14,999 bases of DNA from a virus. Taxonomy: Duplodnaviria; Heunggongvirae; Uroviricota; Caudoviricetes. Below the pieces are notes generated by a model, which did no database searches, was not told the DNA's origin, and saw nothing but the letters and a program-made list of their open reading frames with translations. Position numbers and translations under genes: made by a program. The first letter of the stretch is position 1. Every line of letters begins with the position of its first letter. The stretch lies in IMG/VR virus record IMGVR_UViG_2563366959_000014. One strand, written 5' to 3'. Of this stretch, positions 1 to 14,999 are shown piece by piece.

Positions 1-165
1 ATGGCAAAGCCGATCATCACGCTCAATGGCCTAAAAATCGTCATTATGTTGGGAATGCTGGTCATTATTCTCTGCGGTATCCGTTTTGCCGCCGAGATCA
101 TCGTGCCGTTTATTCTCGCATTATTTATTGCTGTTATATATAACTTATTTCACTTAACGCATTGA
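1..165 (+). pseudogene. tqsA: 5' fragment of an AI-2E family membrane transporter (TqsA-like); after codon 46 the frame runs into unrelated AT-rich sequence and stops at codon 55
   Basis: Translation [45 protein letters not shown] matches my recollection of the E. coli TqsA/YdgG N-terminus; the following IYNLFHLTH* does not. The ORF is far too short for a transporter. Identity is recalled, not searched. Confidence 0.45.
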
Positions 166-251
166 TTTAATTAAATAATTTACACCACAAAAAGTGCCAA
201 AAATCGCAAAATGACTACACCAGTGACTACACCGTTCGGTGCACTGTATGA

Positions 252-277
252 AACAACGTGGAACAAATAGACACAAG
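252..277 (+). promoter_or_regulatory. Copy A of a composite direct-repeat site (AACAACGTGGAACAA then ACACAAG)
   Basis: Exact 13-mer AACAACGTGGAAC at 252-264, also present at 7749-7761 (+) and 13702-13714 (-); flanking bases also similar. Confidence 0.4.
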
Positions 278-596
278 AAATATAAAGGCGGGTCATCTTT
301 CCAGGGGGAAGCGCACCAATTCATGAGGGGCGTTAATGTCGATATGGGGATCCCCACCTACCGGAATTTTTGCCAGGTTAAATGTTAATCAGGCTGGTGG
401 GCTTTACATACCCTTGATCACGGTAATGATGATTCAGGTGCGTACCTTTTCCCCAGTGGGGTAAAAGCTCCAACCGTAACGATGTTCGTTGTGGTTGCCT
501 TGATGGTCTGCGTGGTCATTATGACCATTCAGAATTTGAAGGGTGATGTTTCCGATCTCCTCAAATTGAGGTTGCCGGAAATATCAACGGGTTAGG

Positions 597-1189: not shown

Positions 1190-2851
1190 TTACACCCCGC
1201 TAAATTCTTCCAGTTTCTGGCGGTGGCTGTCGCTTATATCAAAAGCAAAATCCTCATGCTCTGCCTGGAATGTACCAAACGCCATCAGCGCCGCTACGCT
1301 CGGGTCTATCTTGTTCGGTGATTTTTTCTTGTTCGGCTTGATATTGGCGTTCGCGTCACTCTGCATCACGACGTTACTCATCGACCAGGACAACACCGGA
1401 TCGCCACGATGCACAATCACCCTGCGGTTAACAAAAACTTCGAACGATTTCGCCGCCGGACTGAATCTGAGGTAGGTTTGCGGGAACGGCTCCACCTCAA
1501 AACCAGCCCCCTGTAATTGCGTTCTCAGGTGCGTGGCGTTCCACGTATCAAAGCCCACCAGCCTGATATTAAATTTCTCCGCATCCTGCATGATGTCATC
1601 TCTGATCCGGTCGTAATCAATGCAGTCACCTGGCGTTGTGCGTATCCAGCCCGCTTTAGCCCACTGGCGATAGACAGCGCGGTTTTTATTGGCGGGGTTC
1701 TGTAGCTGGAACTCCGGCAGATAATGACGGGAAATCAGCATAATGGTTTTACCAACCGGAAAGGCATAGCACACGCTGGAAATATCGCTGGTTGATGATA
1801 AGTCCAGCCCCGCGTAACACTCCTGCCCGTGTAAATCTTCCTCCGTGAACGTTCCGGCACACTCAGCCCATGCGCCGTAACCCATCCACGGGGTAGCCCC
1901 CTGGCACCAGATATTAAATCGCTTTGTCATCATCTCCACCCATTGCGACGGAATACCCCGCGCTTTCTGGATGGTTGAGGCCAGTTTTTCACGATCCACG
2001 GAAACATCGATGTTAGGGTTAGCCTTTATCCACATCGCCGGATCATCAACCTCGTTTTCGTCGTCCAGCTCGTAAATCAGCACAAAAATTGAATCGTTGA
2101 CCTCTTCGCCGTCCAGGATCTGGCAGCAATAATCATAGTGCTGTTTACAGGCTGAAACGACGTTACTGCCCGATGTGGTAATGGCAAATAACAGCCCTTC
2201 GGGACGTGCGCCCATCCCCAGCTCAAGCGCGGAATAAACGCCGTTATCGGGGTGTAGGTGGTATTCGTCCACGATGGAAAGGCTTGGGTTTGTGCCCTCG
2301 ATGGTTGCCGCTTTTGCTGCCAGCGGCTTTAACAGGCTGTTGCTTTTCGGGTGCATCACCTTGTGGGCCTGAATATTCACCCGCCTGCGTAACGGTCGGG
2401 ATAAAAGGCACATCTGACGCGCATCATCAAAAACGATCCGCGCCTGGTCACGGCTCACCGCTGCGGTGTAGATATCCTGCTGCCCGTTCTCCATAATCAG
2501 AAACCAGTTAGCCAGAATCGCGGCGGTCGTGGATTTCGCATTTTTGCGCGGCACTTCGATAAAGGCGCTCGTGTATTTGCGCCGTCCGGTGGCCTTAACC
2601 TTAAAGCCGAGGATGCACGCAAAGGCGAACTGCTGCCACGGCTCCAGCTCAATGGGTCTGCCACGCATCGGCCCTTTTACGTGCGGGCACACCCTGGAAA
2701 AGGCAATAAACCGCTCCACGACCTCACGATCGAACGTATAAAGGGGGTTTTTAAGGTCAGAAAAGTACCGTTTAACGGCCTGTTTCAGCCGTTTACAGGC
2801 CGGAATTTTGCCCGTTTTTACGTCTTCTGCGTACTTATTCCAGGCGGTCAA
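1190..2851 (-). CDS. Terminase large subunit (TerL)
   Basis: 553 aa with N-terminal ATPase region and C-terminal nuclease-like region typical of HK97-type large terminases. Starts with TTG (AGAGGA Shine-Dalgarno upstream), overlapping the TerS 3' end by 17 nt. Confidence 0.9.
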   Translation of the reverse strand: MTAWNKYAEDVKTGKIPACKRLKQAVKRYFSDLKNPLYTFDREVVERFIAFSRVCPHVKGPMRGRPIELEPWQQFAFACILGFKVKATGRRKYTSAFIEVPRKNAKSTTAAILANWFLIMENGQQDIYTAAVSRDQARIVFDDARQMCLLSRPLRRRVNIQAHKVMHPKSNSLLKPLAAKAATIEGTNPSLSIVDEYHLHPDNGVYSALELGMGARPEGLLFAITTSGSNVVSACKQHYDYCCQILDGEEVNDSIFVLIYELDDENEVDDPAMWIKANPNIDVSVDREKLASTIQKARGIPSQWVEMMTKRFNIWCQGATPWMGYGAWAECAGTFTEEDLHGQECYAGLDLSSTSDISSVCYAFPVGKTIMLISRHYLPEFQLQNPANKNRAVYRQWAKAGWIRTTPGDCIDYDRIRDDIMQDAEKFNIRLVGFDTWNATHLRTQLQGAGFEVEPFPQTYLRFSPAAKSFEVFVNRRVIVHRGDPVLSWSMSNVVMQSDANANIKPNKKKSPNKIDPSVAALMAFGTFQAEHEDFAFDISDSHRQKLEEFSGV

Positions 2852-3191
2852 GCTCGTCCTCTTCTTCTGTTTCCGGTGGATTTTTACGGCGGCTTATCGG
2901 GTCAAAACCGAGCAAAGAGGCCATTTTTATCATCACTCTTTCCGCGTCGGATTTCGCGCTTAATGCGGGGTTTCTGCTCTCGCCGCCCTGACTGTTAACA
3001 ATGCTGAACCCGCGCGCCGCAAGGTCTGCGACGGCTTTCCGGTATATTGAGTAATTGACGCAATACAGTTCCAGATTACTCCAGTCGGCAGGGGTCAGGT
3101 CTCCCCGTTCCGCAAGCTGCCGCGATTTTTCCCGCCACTGCTTCACGGCGATATCATCCAGGTAGGCGGGGGCTTTCGGTGGTCTTGCCAT
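2835..3191 (-). CDS. Terminase small subunit, P27-family-like (TerS)
   Basis: 118 aa; sequence pattern (PKAPAYLD...LTPADWSNLELYCVNYSIY...ESRNPAL) fits P27-family small terminases; directly upstream of TerL. Confidence 0.85.
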   Translation of the reverse strand: MARPPKAPAYLDDIAVKQWREKSRQLAERGDLTPADWSNLELYCVNYSIYRKAVADLAARGFSIVNSQGGESRNPALSAKSDAERVMIKMASLLGFDPISRRKNPPETEEEDELDRLE

Positions 3192-3314: not shown

Positions 3315-3488
3315 TCAGCGATTGCGGAAACATTCCATAACCTCGCGGTCACGGTCGTTTAATCGCGTCGCTGTGATGCGTTCTGCGCGTCCTGATGCTT
3401 TATCTTTATGCCCTGTTTCCTGTGCCTTCCATGCGTCACGCTGCCTTATAAGTCCACGGATAAGGCGGTTTTGTTCCCGCTCATTCAT
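3315..3488 (-). CDS. Small charged hypothetical protein (57 aa)
   Basis: ATG at 3488 overlaps the HNH stop (3481-3483) in the arrangement ATGAATGA, suggesting translational coupling. No family recognised; could be spurious. Confidence 0.35.
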   Translation of the reverse strand: MNEREQNRLIRGLIRQRDAWKAQETGHKDKASGRAERITATRLNDRDREVMECFRNR

Positions 3489-3921
3489 CAGCGCCATACA
3501 TCCAGTTATTGCGGTTAGCGCCCCGTTCTTCCTCCTCACGGAATCCACCCGCAGCACGCTTGTTTTTTGTGGACGGATCAAGCCATTTCGTTTTCTGGTT
3601 ATGACACGCCTGGCACAATGGCTGATGATTCCACTCAGGCCAGAAGAGAACATCATTACCGCCATCGATTGGGATAATGTGATCCACCACCACGGCGGGC
3701 GTGTATATTCCTTTTTCCAGGCAATGCGCACATAACGGGTTTTTACTCAGATACATGGCGCGGTATTTCTCCCACTGCCTCGTATACCCTCGCTCCCTGC
3801 TGCTGCCTCTCCGGCTGTCCTGCTGCTGGCGTGCGCTGCGTCTGTGCTCCTCACACTTGCCGGACTTCACGCGCCTGTTGCAGCCTGGTTCTGTACATCG
3901 TCTTAATGGTTGCCACGGCAT
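3481..3921 (-). CDS. HNH endonuclease (terminase-associated)
   Basis: 146 aa with cysteine-rich N-terminus and the motif VDHIIPI...N.QPLCQACHNQKT; sits next to TerS/TerL as in cos-packaging HK97-like systems. Confidence 0.9.
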   Translation of the reverse strand: MPWQPLRRCTEPGCNRRVKSGKCEEHRRSARQQQDSRRGSSRERGYTRQWEKYRAMYLSKNPLCAHCLEKGIYTPAVVVDHIIPIDGGNDVLFWPEWNHQPLCQACHNQKTKWLDPSTKNKRAAGGFREEEERGANRNNWMYGADE

Positions 3922-4217
3922 CAGTACACCCCCACATCACGGTAAGCCGTCCAGAGTGCGCCAATCGTCATGGGTACGTGTGTTTTTGCGTTATCCGCGA
4001 CAATCTGGCGATTCTCATACAGGTGAGCGATAAACATCATGCAGCCAATCTTTATGGCTGGCGTGAACTCCAGCCCGTCATCAAAGCGCCTGCCTATGTG
4101 TATCTGGCACGCCTCAAGCGATGCGGCAATGTATCCGCTGATTAACTGGTCTTCCTCGTCGCCATCGATGCGGCAATGGAGTTTCACTTCTTCCAGGGTG
4201 ATAAGTTCTTCTGTCAT
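3921..4217 (-). CDS. gp6-like head-tail connector protein
   Basis: 98 aa; N-terminus LITLEEVKLHCRIDGDEEDQLISGYIAAS matches the gp6-like connector pattern. Start and stop overlap neighbouring genes. Confidence 0.8.
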   Translation of the reverse strand: MTEELITLEEVKLHCRIDGDEEDQLISGYIAASLEACQIHIGRRFDDGLEFTPAIKIGCMMFIAHLYENRQIVADNAKTHVPMTIGALWTAYRDVGVY

Positions 4218-4552
4218 TTTTCCGCGCCCTCACGACAAAGAATTTCAAGGCGTGTCCTGGCGGCATCCGGCAGCGGCTGCCCGATGATATTCAGTACACG
4301 CCCCGCCAGCGGCCCCGTATTGACCTTTATCCGGCTGGTGGCGTTGATGTCCTTCCGGTACCGTATCCAGATCCTTACGGTACCAATCGCCAGCTCTGCA
4401 CCCGATGAAATGGCCTCCTTGCTGCTGACCATGTTCACGCTTGCCCAGAGTGTGTGACCGTCCTCCCACGTTTCGAGTATTTCTCCCGTCATGGCTCTGG
4501 TCTGTTTCAGGGTCTGAATCGTTACCCTGTCACGCAGTCGCCCTATGTTCAT
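4214..4552 (-). CDS. Head closure / head-tail adaptor protein
   Basis: Begins MNIGRLRDRVTIQ, with the IRYR and NIIG motifs typical of head-tail joining proteins; ATG at 4552 overlaps the portal stop (ATGA). An alternative start at 4594 is possible. Confidence 0.8.
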   Translation of the reverse strand: MNIGRLRDRVTIQTLKQTRAMTGEILETWEDGHTLWASVNMVSSKEAISSGAELAIGTVRIWIRYRKDINATSRIKVNTGPLAGRVLNIIGQPLPDAARTRLEILCREGAEK

Positions 4553-5760
4553 TCCGGTTTTTCTCCCTCGCTGATTTTTACTTCCTGTTTCCATGCCTGG
4601 CTGAACTCATCACCACCATCACGCGGAGACAACCCTTCTCGTTCGCGGGCTTCGTTCGGGCACATAACACCGGATTTGATGCCTCGCTCATAGGTGGCAA
4701 AGCGTTCGCCAGGTGTGGCCCGTAACAGGTCCGCGCTGTCAAACTCCACCTGATACCGGATACCAGGTACAGGCGAGACCACCAGCAAAGCGTTTTTTAT
4801 CTGCTGCTCAAAGTTCGCCAGCCACGGGCGCATCGTCATGGTGAGAAATGCGCGGCTTGCCTCGCTGAAATTGCTGTAGGTGCTGTTGCTGTATTCCTGC
4901 AGAAAAATCGGCGAGACGTTGAACATTCGGGCGATGTCTTCAATGGTGAAGCGACGGGAGGCCAGCCATTCGGCGTCCTGGTTACTCATGCCCAGCTGCT
5001 GGTAACTCATGCCCCCTTCAAGGATGGGCGTTTTTCCGGCGTTTTTGGCCCCTTTATAGCGTTCCAGTGCGGCTAATGCCTGTTTGCCTTTCACGCCGTC
5101 CAGCCATTCGCCTGACGTGATAACCCCTGCCGCCATCATGCCATCACGCATCACGCTCGCGCCGTGGCGTTGTTGGGCCAGCCCAAGCCCCAGCGATTCG
5201 CGGCAGATGGTTACGGGTGAGCGCCCCATAAAGCCGTCATCCGTGGAGTAACGAAGGTGAAGTACTTCCCACGGTAAATAGTTGCGGGTGTTTCCGGTGT
5301 AGGCGTCAGTGATGCAATAGCGCCAGTTGTGTTCTCCTGTCTGCTCCACGTTCACCGACTGCGGCGGGTAAGGATGTAAAGCCGCCGGAAAACCATCACG
5401 CCCCCACTGAATCACCGCGTAAGCATTACCGTTTAACAGGCAGTGGCGGATCATCATTCGCTTAAACTGGTAGGGAGTCTGCCACGCGTTCGGGCGCTCG
5501 TTGAGGATGTGATCGACCGGATGAGAATCAAGCCACTCGCGGGCCTCCTTCCCCTTCTCATTGCGTACCAGGTACAGGTAACACGGCATAGTAGCCACCG
5601 CCTCAGAGATGACCGTGACGGCGTTCATGACGGCGGGCAGTGATTCCGCTGTCCCCGATGATACATACTCACCCGCCCCCGTGTTTAATGTACCAGCCAG
5701 CGCCATAAATTCATCAAGCGTCATGCTGCGCTGCTCTTTTTTTCTTCTGAAAGGCCACAT
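4549..5760 (-). CDS. Portal protein, HK97 family
   Basis: 403 aa, portal-like sequence features; ATG at 5760 one nt after the protease stop, GGGGGTG Shine-Dalgarno. Confidence 0.9.
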   Translation of the reverse strand: MWPFRRKKEQRSMTLDEFMALAGTLNTGAGEYVSSGTAESLPAVMNAVTVISEAVATMPCYLYLVRNEKGKEAREWLDSHPVDHILNERPNAWQTPYQFKRMMIRHCLLNGNAYAVIQWGRDGFPAALHPYPPQSVNVEQTGEHNWRYCITDAYTGNTRNYLPWEVLHLRYSTDDGFMGRSPVTICRESLGLGLAQQRHGASVMRDGMMAAGVITSGEWLDGVKGKQALAALERYKGAKNAGKTPILEGGMSYQQLGMSNQDAEWLASRRFTIEDIARMFNVSPIFLQEYSNSTYSNFSEASRAFLTMTMRPWLANFEQQIKNALLVVSPVPGIRYQVEFDSADLLRATPGERFATYERGIKSGVMCPNEAREREGLSPRDGGDEFSQAWKQEVKISEGEKPE

Positions 5761-5761
5761 A

Positions 5762-6319
5762 TCACACCCCCGCTAAATCCACCCACCAGCGGCGATTATC
5801 CGCACGCGGCATTTTTTCGGGGTGCTGCTCATACAGGGAACGGCGGACCAGCTCCACACCGGAATCGGGGTAAGCCGGTACGGATGTGACGGTAATTTCG
5901 TACAGTTCCGCAACCAGCACGGTGCGCACGCATGGATCTGTTGTGGTATCCCATACATCCTTACGGGAACGAAAGCCAAAGCTCATGCCGGATATATCAC
6001 CACGCTTAACCAGTTCGATAACGTCCCGCCCTGTACTGGTATCCGGTGGCGTCAGTTCAAAGCGTAACCCTGTGTCGTCCTCTTCCAGTTTCAGCGAGCC
6101 GGAACGGGTGCGCCCCAGTAACATGCTGTGGTCATGCTCATACAGGCCGCGAACGTCATTACCCGCCGCAAGCCACTCAGTAAACGCCCCCCGCTGAAAT
6201 TTTTCGTAAAACTCACCCCATAGCAGATCAGAAAGGTTATTCCAGCGAACAACGTAACCCGTCAGCGTGTTGCTGGCGCTGGTGGTGATTTCCGATGACC
6301 GGATTTCCATACTCTTCAT
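5762..6319 (-). CDS. Prohead maturation protease, HK97 family
   Basis: Sequence pattern (GYVVRWNNLSD...ISGMSFGF...EITVTSVPAYPDSG) fits HK97-type prohead proteases. Start chosen at the internal ATG at 6319 (MKSMEIR); the longer ORF to 6433 would overlap the capsid gene. Confidence 0.85.
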   Translation of the reverse strand: MKSMEIRSSEITTSASNTLTGYVVRWNNLSDLLWGEFYEKFQRGAFTEWLAAGNDVRGLYEHDHSMLLGRTRSGSLKLEEDDTGLRFELTPPDTSTGRDVIELVKRGDISGMSFGFRSRKDVWDTTTDPCVRTVLVAELYEITVTSVPAYPDSGVELVRRSLYEQHPEKMPRADNRRWWVDLAGV

Positions 6320-6374: not shown

Positions 6375-7532
6375 TTAATCGTCGTCCTGTGGCAGTTCCA
6401 GAATCTTGATCGCGTTCGAATCCACCACGCCACCGCCTAAATATTTCTGCGTGAAAATTTTGATGAATCCTGGTTCTGTCAGGTTGTCCGGTCTGGTGCG
6501 AACACCCGTTTCGTGATCAACAATGTAGTAACCGCGTTTGAAGTCACCCAGGGCAATAACGTTATCCGGCATAAACTCCAGATATTCGACCGGAAGGCCC
6601 AGCAACGTATCAGGATCACCAGCCTGTAAACGGTCGCGCCAGATGTAATCACCGTTCGCGTTCTTCACCTTCTGAAGTTTTGCCGCCGTCGTGGAGTTAA
6701 CCACCCAGACCGCGTTTTTGCGGTATTTTTTACGTAATGCAAATTTCAGGTCGATCAGCGGGTCCGCAGATGTCCACGCAAGAGACTCAGAAGGCTTAAT
6801 TACCTGCAACGTACCAAAATCACGCTCTTTGTCGTTCTTCTCTGCACGGGGTACGGATAAAAAGCCTTTTGCTTTTTTGTCACCGTCGCCCACAACCAGA
6901 TCGCTTTCTTCGATTTCCGTGAAGGTGTCGCCAATCTCGCCCGTCAGCCATGAAAGGATGTCCACATCGGAAAAATCCACGATTTCCTGTGTGGTGCGCG
7001 GGTACGCATAGACCGGATACAGCTTAATGCTCACCTCGTTAATCTGCGGGGTGCTGGTCTGTTCGCGTGACTTACCCTCTTCACCGTGGTTAACGGTCGC
7101 ACCGCCAGCGGAAACAAGCTGCTTAAACTCGTTGCTGCTGATTTTCTTCACGGTACAGATGCGGCGCATGGTGGATTCATCCGCCAGCATTCGCATGATT
7201 TCGGTGTTCAGTTCAGGGATAACGGTATAACCACCATCAGCGGGGACACCTGTACTTAATGCGCGGGTTTCACCTGTCAGGATGTAGTTGCGGAGTTCTG
7301 CCGGGTCAGTGGTCTGGCTGCTTTTACCTGGCTTGCTGCGATCTTCGTCTGCAATGGCTTCAAGGCGGGAAATGTCTTTATCGAGGGATTCAGCTTTAGC
7401 GCGTAATTCGTCAAATTTTGCGCCCTCTGCATCGTTAAGGCTGCGGTTTTCTTTTTCCGCGTTCTCCAGCATGTCGCGCATCTGATTTTTAATGGCGGTT
7501 TTCTGCTGGCGTAATTCGATTATTCTCGGCAT
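6375..7532 (-). CDS. Major capsid protein, HK97 fold
   Basis: 385 aa from the ATG at 7532 (MPRIIELRQQ); N-terminal coiled-coil-like delta-domain region followed by a capsid-like body; directly upstream of protease and portal. Confidence 0.9.
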   Translation of the reverse strand: MPRIIELRQQKTAIKNQMRDMLENAEKENRSLNDAEGAKFDELRAKAESLDKDISRLEAIADEDRSKPGKSSQTTDPAELRNYILTGETRALSTGVPADGGYTVIPELNTEIMRMLADESTMRRICTVKKISSNEFKQLVSAGGATVNHGEEGKSREQTSTPQINEVSIKLYPVYAYPRTTQEIVDFSDVDILSWLTGEIGDTFTEIEESDLVVGDGDKKAKGFLSVPRAEKNDKERDFGTLQVIKPSESLAWTSADPLIDLKFALRKKYRKNAVWVVNSTTAAKLQKVKNANGDYIWRDRLQAGDPDTLLGLPVEYLEFMPDNVIALGDFKRGYYIVDHETGVRTRPDNLTEPGFIKIFTQKYLGGGVVDSNAIKILELPQDDD

Positions 7533-7748: not shown

Positions 7749-7773
7749 AACAACGTGGAACGACCACGAACAA
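7749..7773 (+). promoter_or_regulatory. Copy B of the composite direct-repeat site (AACAACGTGGAACGACCACGAACAA)
   Basis: Exact 13-mer shared with 252-264 and 13702-13714; about 215 bp upstream of the capsid operon start. Confidence 0.4.
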
Positions 7774-7790
7774 ATAATTTACAAAAAATT

Positions 7791-8174: not shown

Positions 8175-8447
8175 TTAGCTGTCCTGGTAATTGCGCCATA
8201 TTTCATCACCAGCACCATCTATACCCATTTCGGCATAAGTGCGATTGACTGCCTTTCTCAGGTCTCCGAAATTATCAGGCGGCTCCGGTGGCCTCTGTGC
8301 CTTCCTGGAACATTCCAGCCGTCGCATCGTGATGTGATGCCGTTCCTTGTCTGTCTCCACCAGCATCATGACTTCACCCCATCGCGCCGCCGCCCTCCGG
8401 TAAAATCCTTTCGCTTCGAGTTCTTCCGCTATGCGGTCATGTACCAT
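8175..8447 (-). CDS. PerC-family small transcriptional regulator (90 aa)
   Basis: N-terminus MVHDRIAEELEAKGFYRRAAARWGEVM matches the conserved AE.LE..G.YRRA..RW signature of PerC/Pch proteins as I recall it. ATG at 8447 with GAGGGGGTGA Shine-Dalgarno just after the SSB stop. Confidence 0.6.
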   Translation of the reverse strand: MVHDRIAEELEAKGFYRRAAARWGEVMMLVETDKERHHITMRRLECSRKAQRPPEPPDNFGDLRKAVNRTYAEMGIDGAGDEIWRNYQDS

Positions 8448-8457
8448 CGTCACCCCC

Positions 8458-8868
8458 TCAGAACGGAATATCATCACCGTAAGGGTCATCGCCTCCCGCT
8501 GGTGGCTGATTACCCTGTGTGCCTGTGGTTTTGCGTCTGCTGCCGCCTGGTCGCACCGTTTTCGCACTGATTACGCTGTCGGCAATGACCTGATAACCCT
8601 GACGCGTCTCCCCGTTCTGTCCGGTCCACTGGCTTACCTGCATCGTGCCGGATACGCTGATTACGTTGCCTTTCTCATGTCCTGCCAGTTGGTCGGCCTG
8701 TTTGCCAAATGCCAGGACCGACAGCCATAACGTAGCCTGCCCGTCCTGCGCCTGACTGCATGGCAACGATACCGCCATACGCGCCAGCGTCATCGGTGTG
8801 CCCTTGCTGGTCTGTTTTACCTGCGGGTCGTCCACCAGCCGCCCGTAAGCTGCAATTTGTGCTGTCAT
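8458..8868 (-). CDS. ssb: Single-stranded DNA-binding protein (SSB)
   Basis: OB-fold-like N-terminal region, a Gly/Gln/Pro-rich linker, and the canonical acidic C-terminal tip ending DDIPF. Confidence 0.85.
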   Translation of the reverse strand: MTAQIAAYGRLVDDPQVKQTSKGTPMTLARMAVSLPCSQAQDGQATLWLSVLAFGKQADQLAGHEKGNVISVSGTMQVSQWTGQNGETRQGYQVIADSVISAKTVRPGGSRRKTTGTQGNQPPAGGDDPYGDDIPF

Positions 8869-8877
8869 ATTGCCACC

Positions 8878-9183
8878 TCAGTGAAGCGATCCGGCGTTGT
8901 TCTTTTTCATCTCTTCCATCATTTTTTCAGTGAGCATTACACACTGAAAACCCATGTTTTTGATGTCTACGGGTTTCATGCCTTTGTCAGTGGATATCAC
9001 AGGCAGAATATCCTGATACACATCGCGGTCAGGGTAACTAAGCACACAAAGCGCCCATGATGCCACAGGTGAGGATCCTTCGTCTGTTTCAACCCACCAG
9101 CCTGGTGTAGCTGCGCTTATTTGCAGAATCGTGATCCGTCCGTTGTGCTTGTAAAATTTTTCACCAAATTTTGGTTCGCTCAT
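8878..9183 (-). CDS. Hypothetical protein (101 aa)
   Basis: ATG at 9183 overlapping the upstream stop (ATGA), GGAGAGGTGG Shine-Dalgarno. No family recognised. Confidence 0.6.
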   Translation of the reverse strand: MSEPKFGEKFYKHNGRITILQISAATPGWWVETDEGSSPVASWALCVLSYPDRDVYQDILPVISTDKGMKPVDIKNMGFQCVMLTEKMMEEMKKNNAGSLH

Positions 9184-9425
9184 GATTCCACCTCTCCGGT
9201 TTTAACGTTGATGGTTGTTACCTGTTCCGCTTCGGCAATCTCCCGTTCTGTCAGCGTGGCAAAGTTTGCAGCTGCCGTTGTCATGAATGCGCTAATCAGT
9301 TCGGGATGTGCTTTCGCATATCCTTCCCCGGCGTTGCGGTCGATGATTTTTATCGACACCCTTAACCAGTGTTCCGTCAAATCAAGGGCGTGCGATTGTG
9401 ATTTTTTTGTGTGCTTCGCTGTCAT
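9180..9425 (-). CDS. Hypothetical protein (81 aa)
   Basis: ATG at 9425, first gene downstream of the origin on the minus strand. No family recognised. Confidence 0.55.
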   Translation of the reverse strand: MTAKHTKKSQSHALDLTEHWLRVSIKIIDRNAGEGYAKAHPELISAFMTTAAANFATLTEREIAEAEQVTTINVKTGEVES

Positions 9426-9466
9426 AGGCTTTATCTCACAGCAGTAAATTAAAATTTTTGCGTTTT

Positions 9467-9700
9467 AACCCTTCACCTGTTCACCTTTTGATATTTTATC
9501 TTTTAATTCATAATGTTAAGGGGTGAACAGTTTCACAAAAACTATTCACCAACTGTTCACCACTGTTCACCCTTGAAGCTCAATAAACAATCAAAAAGGT
9601 GAACAGTGAATAGTTTGGTGAACAGTTCATAAATAACTGTTCACCCTATAATATACTGATATAAAAGATATTTATGACAGGGTGAACAGTGGTGAACAGT
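9467..9700. repeat. Replication origin: about ten GGTGAACAG / CTGTTCACC iterons in both orientations within an AT-rich segment
   Basis: Iteron copies at 9478-9485, 9522-9530, 9543-9550, 9553-9561, 9563-9571, 9598-9606, 9617-9625, 9638-9646, 9681-9689 and 9691-9699; the segment lies directly 3' of the primase gene. Confidence 0.75.
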
Positions 9701-9712
9701 TATTCCATAAGT

Positions 9713-11530
9713 TTAATTTTTGCTATCGTCATTAGTGACCGATACACATGACGGCATCCAGTCTTCTGATTCCTCCGTCAGTGTCACGTTTGAACGCAAA
9801 CCGTGCTTCGTTTTCCGTTTCATATACTCCCTGCCATATTCCGCCATTGCCCCCGGCATATCTTTACCGAAGCGCGTCAGTGTTACAGGTTTACCAAACC
9901 CATGTGCCTTCATATAAGCCAGATAGGCATGATAGAGATACCTGCGCGGGCTGAATGGCACAATTTCAGCATTACCCACTAACAGGCCATCACACATTAC
10001 CGACGCCATGAGATAGCCGCAGAAGTCCACCAGCGAATCACCTTCACGCTTTATCGCGAGTGCTTCTTCTGATTTCTGCTGCTCATATAAAAGGCGTCTG
10101 GCTTCGTCCTGGTCAGCAAACCGTGTAAGCAGATGACGAATCACTACCGCCAGCTCACCTTCTATTTTTTCCGCCAGCATTGAATCGCGTTCGTTCTCCG
10201 GTACAACTTCCGAAAAATTGAATATCACCCGACGGCGCGAGATCCCCCCGCTGCGGTCACTGAATGACATGGCGTTATTGTTAACCGCCAGCACTACTGC
10301 CGGAATACGCGTTGAGTAGGGGGCTTTGTGTTTCGGGTCAATTGCCACCTTGTCACCGCCTGTAATGGCCTTAATTCCTGCCCCATCACCAGCGTAGCGG
10401 GTCATATCCGGCATGATAATCAGCGAAAAGCCAACCACTAACGCGCGTTCCCTTGCATCTTCCAGCGCCTTCATGCTTGCCGATACTGTGTTGGCCTTAC
10501 CCGCCAGCATGGTGCAAATCTCCGCCATCACGCTTTTACCACTTCCCCCTGGACCTGTTACCTCAATGAATAACTGCCAGTCGTACCGGTTCGCCAGCAC
10601 CATGAATAATGCAGCCAGTACGCGATCCGCCTTGCGGTCATTCTCAGCCACCGAACGGCGTAACCACTTCCAGAAATTCGGCGCATGTGTTGCCAGCGTT
10701 TCTCCCTCTGCTGGTGGGCTGAAAGGTAATTCACTGGCAATTAACAACCAGTCGTTTTTGTTATGCTCCCGAAAATCGCCTGTCCGGGTATCAAAAACAC
10801 CGTTACTGAATCCAATCAGGTTACGGGCTGTATTCCCCATTACAGGCAAACTTAACTTCATGGTATCGACCGCCGATTTAATGGCGTTCTGCGAATAGCT
10901 GATCTCCGCATCAATGAAAATCTGTGCCATAGCTCGCTGTAATTCTTTATCCTGTACTGGCTCCCATACAACGCCGTTGTAATAGTGAACAGTGTCAGAG
11001 TCAGCATGAATCGCCAGTTCACCGCCATAATGTGCCAGGAGAACTTCGCCGCGTTGACTTGCTCCCATCTGGTTAAGCGCCAGTGATGAAGCGTTATCGT
11101 CTTTTACCCGCTCTTTTTTCTTTACAGGCAGTTCAACTACCTTTTTCTTTTCCGCCTGCTCTGCCCGTTCACGTTCCAGATATTCGCGCCAGTTCTCCCG
11201 TTTCTGGCTGTGCATTCCTTCAGGGTAATAATCAGCATCCCTGACACCTGCCGCTGCCAGTTTCTGCCCGATGGTATTAACAAGCCCCGGACGCAATAAC
11301 CCCGCCTGGTAGAGACGCACGCGATAGCGTCCGTCCGGTACGATTTGCAGGTTGTCCAGTTCGGCAAGTTGTTGCTCTCCAAGCCAGACAGGAGGCACGC
11401 TGTCGCCAGCCAGTCGCCCGTCCTGTTCCTGCCACTGCTTCGCATGTGCCCACGCATCACTACCCGCAAAAATGATGACTTCCGTCATTTTGTCACGTGG
11501 CTGGTGTTTTAAATTTGGCGCTTTTTTCAT
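9713..11530 (-). CDS. Replication primase/NTPase, P4-alpha C-terminal-domain family
   Basis: 605 aa from the ATG at 11530 (MKKAPNL), which overlaps the upstream stop (ATGA) and follows a GGAGAG Shine-Dalgarno. Walker A motif GPGGSGKS and a Walker B-like hydrophobic stretch; followed by the iteron origin. Confidence 0.85.
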   Translation of the reverse strand: MKKAPNLKHQPRDKMTEVIIFAGSDAWAHAKQWQEQDGRLAGDSVPPVWLGEQQLAELDNLQIVPDGRYRVRLYQAGLLRPGLVNTIGQKLAAAGVRDADYYPEGMHSQKRENWREYLERERAEQAEKKKVVELPVKKKERVKDDNASSLALNQMGASQRGEVLLAHYGGELAIHADSDTVHYYNGVVWEPVQDKELQRAMAQIFIDAEISYSQNAIKSAVDTMKLSLPVMGNTARNLIGFSNGVFDTRTGDFREHNKNDWLLIASELPFSPPAEGETLATHAPNFWKWLRRSVAENDRKADRVLAALFMVLANRYDWQLFIEVTGPGGSGKSVMAEICTMLAGKANTVSASMKALEDARERALVVGFSLIIMPDMTRYAGDGAGIKAITGGDKVAIDPKHKAPYSTRIPAVVLAVNNNAMSFSDRSGGISRRRVIFNFSEVVPENERDSMLAEKIEGELAVVIRHLLTRFADQDEARRLLYEQQKSEEALAIKREGDSLVDFCGYLMASVMCDGLLVGNAEIVPFSPRRYLYHAYLAYMKAHGFGKPVTLTRFGKDMPGAMAEYGREYMKRKTKHGLRSNVTLTEESEDWMPSCVSVTNDDSKN

Positions 11531-11826
11531 TTCTGCTCTCTCCACGCGGCAATCATGTTTTTTAGTTCCTGTAGTTTTTTATCAACATCCATACATGACA
11601 CATGGTTATTTCTGGAAAGCGGGATTTCCCGCCTGAATCTGCTAATAAAGATCTCCACGTTCAGCGAACTAAGAAATGAATAGCCATCACGGATAAAATA
11701 CACTCGGTCAAACATCAGTTCTTTTACCGTTACTCTGTTACCGTTCTTATCCAGATAAATAGCGCCGGGGATAATTTGGGGGTGTGCATAACCGCTGGCA
11801 GTCAAGCCAGATAAATATGTTCTCAT
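11527..11826 (-). CDS. Hypothetical protein (99 aa), AT-rich
   Basis: ATG at 11826 with GGGGA Shine-Dalgarno; stop overlaps the primase start. No family recognised. Confidence 0.55.
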   Translation of the reverse strand: MRTYLSGLTASGYAHPQIIPGAIYLDKNGNRVTVKELMFDRVYFIRDGYSFLSSLNVEIFISRFRREIPLSRNNHVSCMDVDKKLQELKNMIAAWREQK

Positions 11827-11832
11827 GATTAT

Positions 11833-12153
11833 TTATCCCCGATTTAAATCAGTATTCGCTTTCTTTATAGCATTTAATGCATCTTTGGCATTTTCAATGG
11901 TGCACCGTAACGAAATATCAAACTGTCCAAGCATTGCCAGTAACAAACCGATATTACCCATATCAATGCGCATGGCCTTTTCGTCATATTCCTTATTTTC
12001 TGACGCATACCACATCAGGCTACCAATTGACGAAACAGCCATTGATATATTGTCAGTAGCCCCATCCGCAGCGGAATAAACCTTTTTAGCAATATCATGC
12101 TCACAGTTAAAATGCGGATTAATCAGGTACTGGTAATTGGTCATGTCAGTCAT
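11833..12153 (-). CDS. Hypothetical protein (106 aa), AT-rich
   Basis: ATG at 12153 (alternative at 12144), overlapping the 3' end of the upstream small gene. No family recognised. Confidence 0.55.
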   Translation of the reverse strand: MTDMTNYQYLINPHFNCEHDIAKKVYSAADGATDNISMAVSSIGSLMWYASENKEYDEKAMRIDMGNIGLLLAMLGQFDISLRCTIENAKDALNAIKKANTDLNRG

Positions 12154-12349
12154 GGCACACCCCCTGACGAATACGGGCGGCGAATACCATCACGCAGCCA
12201 GCCGGGGATTGCTGGCGTGCTTCCTGTTCGCTGCTGGCCTCAATGGTAATCACGCGCGGTTGTGCCGTGCTCAGGGCGATAAAACGCCAGATGTATTTAT
12301 TCAGGTTGTGCGAGTCCCGCCCTTGCGGGTGTGTGGTATGATTTCTCAT
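12146..12349 (-). CDS. Hypothetical protein (67 aa), first gene of the minus-strand replication operon
   Basis: ATG at 12349 with GAGGT Shine-Dalgarno at 4-nt spacing; this is the C-terminal 67 codons of a longer spurious ORF. Weak support. Confidence 0.4.
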   Translation of the reverse strand: MRNHTTHPQGRDSHNLNKYIWRFIALSTAQPRVITIEASSEQEARQQSPAGCVMVFAARIRQGVCHD

Positions 12350-12445
12350 AGCTACCTCGATACTTTCGCTATCGTTGGTGGTTAGAAGCCCGGTTAGTGT
12401 TAGCGCACTGCCGGGTTTCGTCGTTTCTGCACCTTGCGCCAACAA

Positions 12446-12499
12446 GGTGTTGAACACCAATTTAAACCCAGGTGTTAAACACGTCAAGTGTTGAACACT
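12446..12499. promoter_or_regulatory. Three palindromic operators (GTGTT-N-AACAC) in a divergent promoter region
   Basis: GGTGTTGAACACC at 12446-12458, GGTGTTAAACACG at 12471-12483, AGTGTTGAACACT at 12487-12499. The third overlaps a plus-strand -35-like TTGAAC (12491-12496), with a 17-bp spacer to a -10-like CATACT (12514-12519). Confidence 0.6.
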
Positions 12500-12548
12500 T
12501 ATTTTTTTTCCTGCATACTGCATTTGTTTTTTATGAGGGGTACACCAC

Positions 12549-12728
12549 ATGGCGACAAAAGCAGTAAACGCAAAATCACAAACCGTTGCGGCAAGGGTTC
12601 CGCATGAAGTTATGAACAATGTTGAGGCGGTAAAAATGCCTGGCGAAAGTACGGGGCAATTTGTTACTGCAGCATTAAAACGAGAAGTTGAATATCGCCA
12701 GCGGCGCAAGGCCAAAGAACCAGAGTAA
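12549..12728 (+). CDS. Ribbon-helix-helix (Arc/CopG-like) DNA-binding protein, 59 aa
   Basis: Not in the supplied ORF track (under 60 aa). ATG at 12549 with GAGGGG Shine-Dalgarno. TVAARVP (beta strand), HEVMNNVEAV (helix), GESTGQ (turn), FVTAALKREV (helix) fits the RHH pattern. Divergent from the replication operon. Confidence 0.55.
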   Translation: MATKAVNAKSQTVAARVPHEVMNNVEAVKMPGESTGQFVTAALKREVEYRQRRKAKEPE

Positions 12729-12785
12729 TCACCATCAGCGCCGTGGTGTAAGGTATTACGGCGCATTGCTATGCAGGACAACACA

Positions 12786-12959
12786 ATGACCGATAAAGAA
12801 TTGACCAAAACATTATCACCGGCACGGAAAAGACGGCGCAGAAAGATAGAGCATGAATCAGAAAGATTCGCGCCATGTGCTTTTGCCCTTGAGCAATTCC
12901 TTAAAGAGTACAGGGAAAAGCGCTCATTGCAGGTATGGCAACGAACTGAACCAGACTGA
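12786..12959 (+). CDS. Small basic hypothetical protein (57 aa)
   Basis: ATG at 12786 with AGGA upstream (alternative start at 12771); contains an RKRRRRK basic tract; followed by a terminator. Confidence 0.4.
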   Translation: MTDKELTKTLSPARKRRRRKIEHESERFAPCAFALEQFLKEYREKRSLQVWQRTEPD

Positions 12960-13054
12960 TAGCATTGCCCACCAGCCTGATAGCGACTATCATTGCCGTT
13001 CTTATGTTTGGGATCACACACACAAACGGCGCAGCGGGTTATCTGTTCAGAAAG

Positions 13055-13082
13055 GCGGCTCCATTTCGGGGCCGCTTTTTTT
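13055..13082 (+). terminator. Rho-independent terminator (plus strand)
   Basis: GCGGC / GCCGC stem followed by seven T, about 95 nt after the stop of the second plus-strand small gene. Confidence 0.6.
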
Positions 13083-13228
13083 ATGTCTGAAAAACCCCAA
13101 TTTTGTTGTTTTTCAGTTTCACCAGGGCGAACGAATCCCCGCCCACGTTCGGGCGCATATTCAATCTTCATGGTTATAGCTCTGTGTTCAGATGATTGAT
13201 GTGTGGCGGCTGCGTGCCGCCAGCGTGA

Positions 13229-13417
13229 TTAATGAACTGCCTTGCAGCTATCCTTCCAGGCCAGAACCTCGGATAAAGACCAGCCAACGGAACGACCGCC
13301 AAGTTTACGACGTGATGGGAATTGTCCGGCCTTTTCCATGCGGTAGCGACACGTACGGCTAAGGCCGGTTAGTTTTTCGCATTCTTTTTCACGTATAAAC
13401 CGATCAGTGCTTAACAC
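13229..13417 (-). CDS. alpA: AlpA-family regulator / excisionase-like HTH protein
   Basis: 62 aa; KLTGLSRTCRYRMEKAGQFPSRRKLGGRSVGWSLSEVLAWK fits the AlpA/Vis winged-helix pattern. GTG start at 13417 with AGGGGG Shine-Dalgarno at 5-nt spacing; lies downstream of the integrase. Confidence 0.8.
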   Translation of the reverse strand: MLSTDRFIREKECEKLTGLSRTCRYRMEKAGQFPSRRKLGGRSVGWSLSEVLAWKDSCKAVH

Positions 13418-13689: not shown

Positions 13690-13740
13690 TTGTTCGTGAT
13701 TGTTCCACGTTGTTGCACATTGTTTCACGTTGTATCTGTT
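13690..13740 (-). promoter_or_regulatory. Copy C of the composite site, embedded in five tandem 10-bp repeats (TGTTnCACnT)
   Basis: Consecutive decamers TGTTCGTGAT, TGTTCCACGT, TGTTGCACAT, TGTTTCACGT, TGTATCTGTT; reverse complement contains the exact AACAACGTGGAAC. Lies between the integrase stop and alpA. Confidence 0.45.
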
Positions 13741-13781: not shown

Positions 13782-14999
13782 TTATTTTCTTCTGGCTACG
13801 GGTAGCGTGGTTACGTTTTCATGTGCTCCCGCCAGTATCCCTAACCGCTCCGTCCACATATCCAGCGCATCACGTTTCGCATCCAGATAACGGGAATGGT
13901 TATAGACTCGTTGCATCCCTGGCATCTGATGACCTGTAAGCTGCTCCACGACGTGAGGATCCGCGCCTAAATCGTTCAGCATCGTTGTAAAGGTGCGCCG
14001 GATGTCATGCAGTGACCATTGAGGGTGTTTTAGCCTCCTGTGCGCTAATCTGCCGTACTGCGATACGCTGGCCTCCTGTTTCACTTCCCCCAGCAATAAG
14101 CCCGTGTGCCTGTTCTGCTCCACCAGCTTCATGACAAACGGCAGGATCGCTTCCGGTATGGGCCGGAATATTGCGACCTTCGTTTTGCTGTGCTCCTTCG
14201 GAACGGTCCATAGCATTTCCGTAAAATCCCACTCCCCGATCTCCGATAACCTCAGTTCTACCGTTCTGGCACCGAAGACAATCAGGAGGCGGATTAACGC
14301 GACGTAGTAAGGGGAAAATATTTTTTTATCCAGTGCCTGCAATAACTCGCCAAGTTCTTTGGTGCTTAAGACACGCTCGCTTATATCCGGTTTTTTCCCA
14401 ACGTCCGCAACGTTCAGATCGTCCAGAACGTTGCTGATTGCATAGCGCCGCCTACGGCAGAACTTAAGCGCCTGTTTGCACGCCTGTAGCACGAATCCGG
14501 CAGTAACAGGCGTTCGCTTTGCCACCTGGTCAAAACAAGCCAGCCAGTGCCGTAGCTCGCATTTATCCAGCGGCATAGCACCAATGTGCTGTATTACGTG
14601 ATTATTAAGTCGCCTTTTCAGGGCGATATAATCCACGCGGTTTTCCTTTACGTAAGACTCAAGCCAGTAGGTAAGCGCATCGCCAACCGTTACGGGCTTT
14701 AACGCTTCCTGTACGGTGTAATTCATCTCATGACGTGGATTTTTCCCCTCAGCCAGCCATGCGCGACACTGTGCGGCTTTTTCCCTGGCTGCTTTCAGGC
14801 TCAGATCAGGATAACTTCCCAGCTTAATGCGTTCGGGTCGTGTCTCCCTTCCCGTTCCGGCCCTGTATGTGAAATACCATGTCAATTTCCCTGATGTTAA
14901 ATATTTCACGCTCAGGTTTCCGCCATCACTATAAAACGTGTTTTTCTCAGCTGGCTTACCATGAAGTTTCCTTAGCAATGTATCGCTCAGTTTGTTCAT
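13782..14999 (-). CDS. int: Tyrosine integrase, P4-type
   Basis: 405 aa; N-terminal arm-binding-like region (YSDGGNLSVKY...WYFTYR) and a C-terminal catalytic region with the conserved HDIRRT and a tyrosine near the C-terminus. ATG is the last three bases of the window. Confidence 0.9.
   Translation of the reverse strand: MNKLSDTLLRKLHGKPAEKNTFYSDGGNLSVKYLTSGKLTWYFTYRAGTGRETRPERIKLGSYPDLSLKAAREKAAQCRAWLAEGKNPRHEMNYTVQEALKPVTVGDALTYWLESYVKENRVDYIALKRRLNNHVIQHIGAMPLDKCELRHWLACFDQVAKRTPVTAGFVLQACKQALKFCRRRRYAISNVLDDLNVADVGKKPDISERVLSTKELGELLQALDKKIFSPYYVALIRLLIVFGARTVELRLSEIGEWDFTEMLWTVPKEHSKTKVAIFRPIPEAILPFVMKLVEQNRHTGLLLGEVKQEASVSQYGRLAHRRLKHPQWSLHDIRRTFTTMLNDLGADPHVVEQLTGHQMPGMQRVYNHSRYLDAKRDALDMWTERLGILAGAHENVTTLPVARRK

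Follow-up and report, generated by a model that had tools for sequence, protein, structure and literature searches.

What interrupts the gene with which this DNA begins, and does its host still make the protein? The window, that is the whole stretch of 14,999 nt that we analysed, opens with codons of a multi-pass membrane transporter and runs into a stop after only 54 of them. A preliminary description, made from the letters alone, recognised the first 46 codons as TqsA-like and suggested that an island had integrated inside the 5' coding region of a host gene, either inactivating it or supplying a replacement 5' end at the other junction. The comparisons reported here lead us to conclude, with high confidence, that positions 1-165 are the attL junction of a phage satellite of 15,058 bp, a capsid-forming phage-inducible chromosomal island (cf-PICI), integrated in tqsA by tyrosine-integrase recombination, and that the lysogen is most likely tqsA-null.

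The window starts at the ATG of tqsA (ydgG), the AI-2 exporter gene of E. coli. Most of 5,426 complete E. coli genomes, BL21 and K-12 among them, have a tqsA that matches positions 1-137 with 100% identity, as the initial recognition of the transporter had implied. When BL21 tqsA was aligned base by base, the match broke exactly after nt 137. The features at this end are:

1..137, plus strand: tqsA (ydgG) 5' fragment, host DNA, codons 1-45 and 2 nt of codon 46
1..165, plus strand: chimeric 54-codon stub ORF with TqsA residues 1-46, eight element-derived codons (YNLFHLTH) and TGA
129..137, no strand: attL copy of the 9-bp core TGCTGTTAT, common to attL, attR and the empty attB

The exporter's helix H1 and the first half of its H2 are encoded by the host fragment, which PGAP labels 'pheromone autoinducer 2 transporter, missing C-terminus'. 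Codon 46 changes from ATT to ATA across the junction and still encodes Ile, by chance only. The eight foreign codons before the TGA at 163-165 are AT-rich, and the GC content is 0.44 in 1-137 versus 0.25 in 138-210; the AT-rich turn and the stop after eight unrelated codons are thus as first described. Other occupied genomes carry the tails YNLFNLTN, YNLLHITR or YNLFRITH, or YN followed by a stop. Since the eight-codon tail differs between genomes and is two codons long in one of them, the stub is not a conserved small protein, and no intact annotated small protein corresponds to the 54-aa ORF.

The right junction lies beyond the window and was read in NZ_CP144930.1 (L003), which is 99.9% identical, with 10 of 14,999 positions different. 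There, a second copy of TGCTGTTAT is found 188-196 nt beyond the window end, 15,058 bp downstream of the copy at 129-137, so that the short direct repeat sought by the preliminary description exists; counted with one core copy, the element is 15,058 bp long. Past the integrase gene int, L003 contains about 175 bp of element DNA and then ...TGATAAAATGCTGTTAT|TCTTAACCCGCTGG..., which is tqsA from codon 44 on. The rest of the transporter gene is therefore present beyond the integrase, at the very place where it had been proposed to lie. At the core, attL reads ...TTATTTATTGCTGTTAT|ATATAACTT..., attR reads ...TGATAAAATGCTGTTAT|TCTTAACCC... and the empty attB of BL21 reads ...TTATTTATTGCTGTTATTCTTAACCC...; the block of identity between the three is exactly the 9 nt TGCTGTTAT. 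Six occupied genomes were sampled for the comparison of junctions and reconstructions. The core is identical in all of them, and the tqsA remainder (906 nt in L003) follows directly after int in each, with elements of 11.4-15.3 kb in between. Among the 5,426 complete E. coli genomes, this attL occurs in 204 and the matching attR in 247, about 4%; O26 and O111 are among the clonal lineages that carry the element. In the layout that we propose for the right flank, the int start at +12 would be followed by two ACTACACC repeats, ...TGATAAAATGCTGTTATTCTTAACCC and then tqsA codons 47-344.

Joining positions 1-137 to the sequence after the core at attR gives a 1,035-nt ORF with a product identical to BL21 TqsA. 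In all six sampled genomes, halves joined in silico at the core encode a 344-aa TqsA with 0-2 amino-acid differences from BL21, and excision should hence restore the gene. An attR probe with 174 nt of the remainder matched NZ_CP144930.1 at a single place, meaning that there is no second copy of the gene in this genome. The Pfam domain AI-2E_transport spans TqsA residues 14-328 and is cut inside, at residue 46. Neither junction rebuilds it: attL adds eight unrelated codons and attR has an in-frame TGA TAA, the tqsA frame there reading K-TGA-TAA-N-AVILNPLVQH in 6/6 sampled occupied genomes. In the cryo-EM structure of TqsA, the subunits of the pentamer meet on the cytoplasmic face mainly through H1 (residues 7-29), and H2 comprises residues 31-57 (PMC9475539). 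Both tqsA halves are pseudogenes according to PGAP in every occupied genome examined. With tqsA split and int adjoining its far half, an island inside the 5' coding region of a host gene is what we find; of the two outcomes initially envisaged, inactivation is supported, both halves being annotated as pseudogenes, and the replacement 5' end falls with the TGA TAA at attR in 6/6 genomes. Based on the sequence, we infer that TqsA function is lost in carriers.

We propose that attP and attB, which share only the 9-bp TGCTGTTAT, would recombine via the tyrosine integrase at codons 43-46, within H2. Integration splits tqsA into the promoter-proximal 54-codon stub and a 906-nt remainder without promoter and start codon. 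As the element brings no replacement 5' segment, the lysogen would most likely be tqsA-null. Int-mediated excision at the core would yield an intact tqsA again. By analogy with other Gram-negative PICIs, a helper phage switching on alpA may be the trigger for excision.

Which kind of element carries this attachment site is apparent from its genes, all of which lie on the minus strand. The packaging and head module was assigned by Pfam, PHROGs and the PGAP annotation of L003:

1190..7532, minus strand: packaging and head module
1190-2851, minus strand: TerL of a P27-type TerS/TerL pair
2835-3191, minus strand: TerS of the same P27-type pair
3481-3921, minus strand: HNH endonuclease
3921-4217, minus strand: head-tail adaptor
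4214-4552, minus strand: head closure protein
4549-5760, minus strand: portal
5762-6319, minus strand: prohead protease
6375-7532, minus strand: major capsid protein, HK97-type
8175..12349, minus strand: regulation and replication module with PerC-like activator, SSB, primase, DUF4222 protein and Icd-like protein
9465-9705, inside the regulation and replication module: iteron cluster
9713-11530, minus strand: D5-type primase/helicase (Pfam D5_N/Pox_D5/DUF5906)
13229..13417, minus strand: alpA, Phage_AlpA family (Pfam PF05930, E=1.2e-16)
13782..14999, minus strand: tyrosine integrase gene (Pfam Arm-DNA-bind_3, Phage_int_M, Phage_integrase)

The element has the PICI backbone of int, alpA and primase (Pfam), and its minus-strand order capsid-protease-portal-connectors-hnh-terS-terL matches the cf-PICI description. 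Judged by gene content, order and size, it is a capsid-forming PICI; cf-PICIs are roughly a third as long as a phage genome (~15 kb). None of the ORFs had a match among tail families, and the small ones left over fell into PHROGs of unknown function; none of the phage records compared with the element covers more than 20% of it. According to PGAP coordinates in L003, the integrase truly starts 12 nt beyond the window end and has 409 aa, and the attR core lies about 175 bp from this start. Its catalytic motifs can be read directly: FGARTVEL with the box I Arg, HDIRRTF with the H-x-x-R of box II, and GHQMPGMQRVYNH with the C-terminal Tyr; the Phage_integrase domain scores E=2.2e-15 (Pfam). AlpA is a regulator and likely also the excision factor. 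The iteron cluster at 9465-9705 is AT-rich (about 33% GC) and lies directly 3' of the primase gene. The iteron GGTGAACAGT occurs there at least 10 times, in both orientations, and the cluster is probably the replication origin of the satellite.

Some further parts of the element deserve mention. At 12146-13171 on the minus strand, a mechanical ORF of 341 aa corresponds to two separate PGAP features, an Icd-like gene and a truncated pseudogene; a YlcI/YnfO-family gene lies opposite to it (12549-12728, plus strand), and the segment differs between elements. It may be a hotspot for accessory genes. Towards the left end, a stretch of 53 nt at 629-681 recurs as a direct repeat at 848-900 with 83% identity. 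Both copies contain the hairpin AGCGCAATTTTGCGCT and behind it a T-rich tail, so that they resemble terminators on the plus strand, and a further hairpin GGCCAGAGTGCAAATTTGCACTCTGG is located at 595-620. These hairpins may insulate the element from transcription coming from the tqsA promoter. Small ORFs at 154-357 (minus), 239-388 (plus) and 336-464 (plus) were treated as non-coding, being unannotated in seven genomes and part of near-invariant arm DNA. A search of the window and the left arm for known RNA families returned none at gathering score; the one hit below threshold, to tfoR (16.5 bits, cutoff 70), is at chance level.

The ends of the element are organised as follows:

138..420, no strand: left element end, P' arm of attP, from an alignment of eight junctions that included elements at other attB sites
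155..167, minus strand: IHF-consensus-like site WATCAANNNNTTR at a distance of 18 bp from the core, a pattern match at L003 3155-3167
214..233, plus strand: two 12-bp-phased ACTACACC repeats; the P arm has a matching pair past the end of the window
249..265, plus strand: 10-bp-phased TGRAACA pair, TGRAACAnnnTGRAACA
13701..13727, minus strand: three phased TGRAACA-type repeats in the int-alpA interval (L003 16701-16727)

The P' arm begins with a variable 22-bp segment beside the core (138-159) and continues with a block that is almost invariant between elements. This block (160-410) is non-coding and nearly unchanged at three different attB sites and in both PICI types. It reaches beyond the recognisable arm repeats, includes the palindrome GGGGATCCCC and had no match among Rfam families. 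The sequence at 155..167 is kept in all aligned elements, and we regard it as a putative IHF site; the pattern as such is not enriched (2 matches, 1.03 expected). The ACTACACC pattern occurs four times in L003 versus 0.30 expected, each time in one of the two arms, and these copies are part of a 73-nt direct repeat between the arms. They are probably arm-type sites for the N-terminal domain of the integrase, a reading supported by the Arm-DNA-bind_3 domain that the integrase carries. A weaker copy of the arm repeat family (65% identical; ACAACGTGGAACGACCACGAACAAAT) is present at 7750-7786, upstream of the capsid operon. TGRAACAnnnTGRAACA matches L003 five times versus 0.03 expected: one pair is in the P' arm, two are in the P arm (L003 18084-18163, plus strand), and the overlapping triple lies upstream of alpA. 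Their occurrence at both att arms and upstream of alpA suggests that a single protein, possibly AlpA, acts both on att and on the promoter region of its own gene, and the repeats are possibly sites for AlpA as recombination directionality factor. Strand exchange, with a 7-bp overlap, probably takes place at 129-135, the first 7 bp of the core, because the 9-bp core and the 10-bp core of the O157 attP intersect over 7 bp. The O157 attP has perfect 7-bp inverted repeats around a 7-bp centre, GATAAAA-TATGTCC-TTTTATC.

Elements with different cargo share the identical tqsA junction. They comprise the cf-PICI with D5 primase, a cf-PICI in STEC299 in which a RepA-type helicase replaces the primase, and a classical PICI of 11.4 kb. 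The tqsA junction is the result of multiple independent integrations at one position by a tight clade of integrases, which is the TIGER criterion. The classical PICI, found in the CSF isolate MS15046 (L007, 18138-29549), occupies this very position in tqsA with the same int/attP module, so that the integration module is shared between PICI types; its cargo includes a lambda-like major capsid and a decoration protein, without terminase or portal.

Related integrases are also found at other targets. In O157:H7 F7508, a 15.4-kb element (L004) with a 91% identical integrase sits in the phoQ-roxA intergenic region, flanked by the core repeat AAATATGTCC at 17971-17980 and 33432-33441. Its attP is colinear and of the same length, with a 30-bp central segment replaced, and this replacement redirects integration to phoQ-roxA. 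Most of the differences between its integrase and the tqsA type fall into the first 60 residues, with roughly 17 differing residues at positions 100-409, and in the comparison of L004 with the window the arm repeats change from (A/G)TGACTACACC to TT(G/A)ACTACACC. In strain 2313 (NZ_AP027159.1; L005, 2990-3060 and 17740-17830), a 95.5%-identical cf-PICI lies in the needle-protein gene of the ETT2 type III secretion system. The attB' there reads ...GATTGCTG|ATATCCAT..., with the core TGCTGaTAT, one mismatch to TGCTGTTAT. The integrase of strain 2313 has the accession WP_032253245.1, the same as that of the tqsA copy in strain 96_1414B, and the presence of one integrase at tqsA and at the secondary site in ETT2 indicates limited promiscuity. 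A cross-species contig survey for the integrase, run with over-specific patterns, returned one locus, in Shigella flexneri, which is of the phoQ-roxA type.

Both the cf-PICI family and the insertion site in tqsA have been described before, and the current understanding of them is unchanged. Bobay 2013 (PMC3603311) lists tqsA among the E. coli core genes disrupted by prophage integration, and Mageeney 2020 (PMC7192596) counts it among 19 newly proposed cases of 'regulated gene integrity'. The supplement of the latter gives tqsA islands of 11, 15 and 16 kb in which the disruption of the UPF0118 domain starts at about model position 32, and its TIGER domain test scored tqsA as disrupted without restoration. 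These islands (Eco282.16.tqsA, Eco33.11.tqsA and Eco557.15.tqsA) and the case of Bobay 2013 concern the same gene, cut at about residue 46, with the same sizes (11-16 kb) and no restoration by attP; we found no difference to our element. What we add to the catalogued islands is the 9-bp core, the probable 7-bp overlap, the two kinds of arm repeats and the cf-PICI cargo. Integration within a coding region had been called unusual in the preliminary description. This was too strong: attP usually restores the target, with exceptions (PMC10111431), and unrestored splitting of genes is a recognised minority class in which tqsA already has its place (PMC3603311, PMC7192596).

Six attB sites serve the cf-PICIs of E. 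coli, and four of these are common to classical PICIs (10.1101/2022.09.08.507074); the classical PICI of MS15046 at tqsA is consistent with such sharing. The cf-PICI prototype EcCIEDL933 (15.4 kb; Alqurainy 2022, 10.1101/2022.09.08.507074) is of the same size class as our element and has the same gene content and order, likewise without tail genes. The EcCIEDL933-type O157:H7 element encodes an identical TerS (RefSeq protein WP_000113645.1) and has colinear attP arms. Unlike the element in the window, it splits no gene and carries a DUF927-type replication protein instead of the D5-type primase. The function of alpA in PICI induction is known from the same study, and helper induction through alpA and the use of own small capsids on helper tails were shown for EcCIEDL933 only (10.1101/2022.09.08.507074).

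Other mobile elements provide both parallels and differences. Stx phages in mlrA (yehV) or wrbA, Listeria phi10403S in comK and S. aureus phiSa3 in hlb split their targets in the same unrestored manner, and their precise excision restores the gene, as predicted for the tqsA element. They are complete phages, and experiments have demonstrated a regulatory role for several of them (cited in PMC7192596), whereas the tqsA element is a satellite. The P4 family at tRNA 3' ends and phage 21 and e14 at icd likewise have an arm-binding tyrosine integrase, int beside att and arm repeats on both sides. Unlike these, the element in tqsA has an attP with only 9 bp in common with the target, and the end that is interrupted is not rebuilt by it.

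The alternative that survives best is that the split is a selected, reversible switch in the sense of 'regulated gene integrity' or active lysogeny, with AI-2 export turned off by carriage and on by excision to the benefit of host or satellite. The use of one site by independent elements with different cargo, the intact gene halves and the place of tqsA among the 19 candidates of Mageeney (PMC7192596) agree with it, and deletion of tqsA alters biofilm, motility, intracellular AI-2 and lsr expression (Herzberg 2006, in the account cited in PMC9475539). However, neither excision without loss of the element nor any regulation is in evidence, and E. coli has three paralogues, YhhT, YdiK and PerM (PMC9475539), so that the loss may simply be tolerated. 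Moreover, the 91%-identical integrase at phoQ-roxA and the secondary site in ETT2 suggest that the target is set by a chance match rather than by function. Taken together, we consider selection for a switch unlikely.

Somewhat less likely still is the more specific proposal that the satellite works as a reversible quorum-sensing switch, in which integration would abolish TqsA-dependent AI-2 export and helper-triggered excision would bring it back. If true, the integrated satellite would raise intracellular AI-2 and biofilm formation, and in about 4% of E. coli, major non-O157 Shiga-toxin (STEC) lineages among them, its life cycle would be tied to AI-2 signalling. It is more speculative that the 54-aa stub, which keeps the pentamer contact H1, might interfere with paralogous AI-2E transporters.

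Could the remainder of the gene be expressed as an N-terminally truncated TqsA that retains some transport? Read-through or a promoter of the element would have to drive it from GTG50 or ATG53. In-frame GTG and ATG codons do occur 7 and 10 codons past the stops, the ATG at codon 53 has a weak GGTG upstream of it at 6 nt, and the remainder is free of stop codons and frameshifts in 6/6 genomes. Yet a consensus scan for sigma-70-like promoters in 700 bp around attR found none, which is weak negative evidence, and the product would be devoid of H1, the main pentamer contact, and of most of H2 (PMC9475539). The intact state of the remainder is equally well explained by a recent or reversible insertion, and its nucleotide differences from BL21 are mostly ordinary strain polymorphisms. 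A partly functional truncated exporter is thus very unlikely.

Even less can be said for a replacement 5' end at attR, through which a full-length or hybrid TqsA would still be made as with phage 21 and e14 at icd or P4 at tRNA genes. A candidate for it is an ORF of 60 codons, annotated as hypothetical protein (WP_097342485.1 / WP_001332680.1), which begins in the int start region and extends towards tqsA, in frame with the remainder. However, it ends at TGA TAA one codon before the core in 6/6 genomes, which contradicts the proposal. The ORF has no similarity to H1 or H2 of TqsA and runs through the arm-repeat DNA; in MS15046 it is frameshifted and in the O157 element unannotated. The absence of restoration in the TIGER domain test (PMC7192596 supplement) points in the same direction, and we regard a replaced 5' end as extremely improbable.

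The weakest explanation, that the junction is an artefact of assembly or of the window, whose end does not include attR, or that an unrelated rearrangement or IS broke tqsA, has a negligible probability given the same attL in 204 and the same attR in 247 complete genomes, the same 9-bp repeat at the junctions with exact reconstitution of the target, int beside att and arm-type repeats on both arms; misassembly is ruled out by the recurrence of the junction in hundreds of complete genomes.

The integration of a cf-PICI at the 9-bp core, which we consider the best account of this locus, explains why, in the annotation of roughly 4% of complete E. coli genomes, tqsA appears as two pseudogene fragments. 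Carriers are predicted to be mutants of the AI-2 exporter that could be reverted by excision, which is relevant to their quorum-sensing and biofilm phenotypes. In addition, the pair of tqsA-type and phoQ-type elements offers a compact natural example of a change in integrase target that could guide retargeting.
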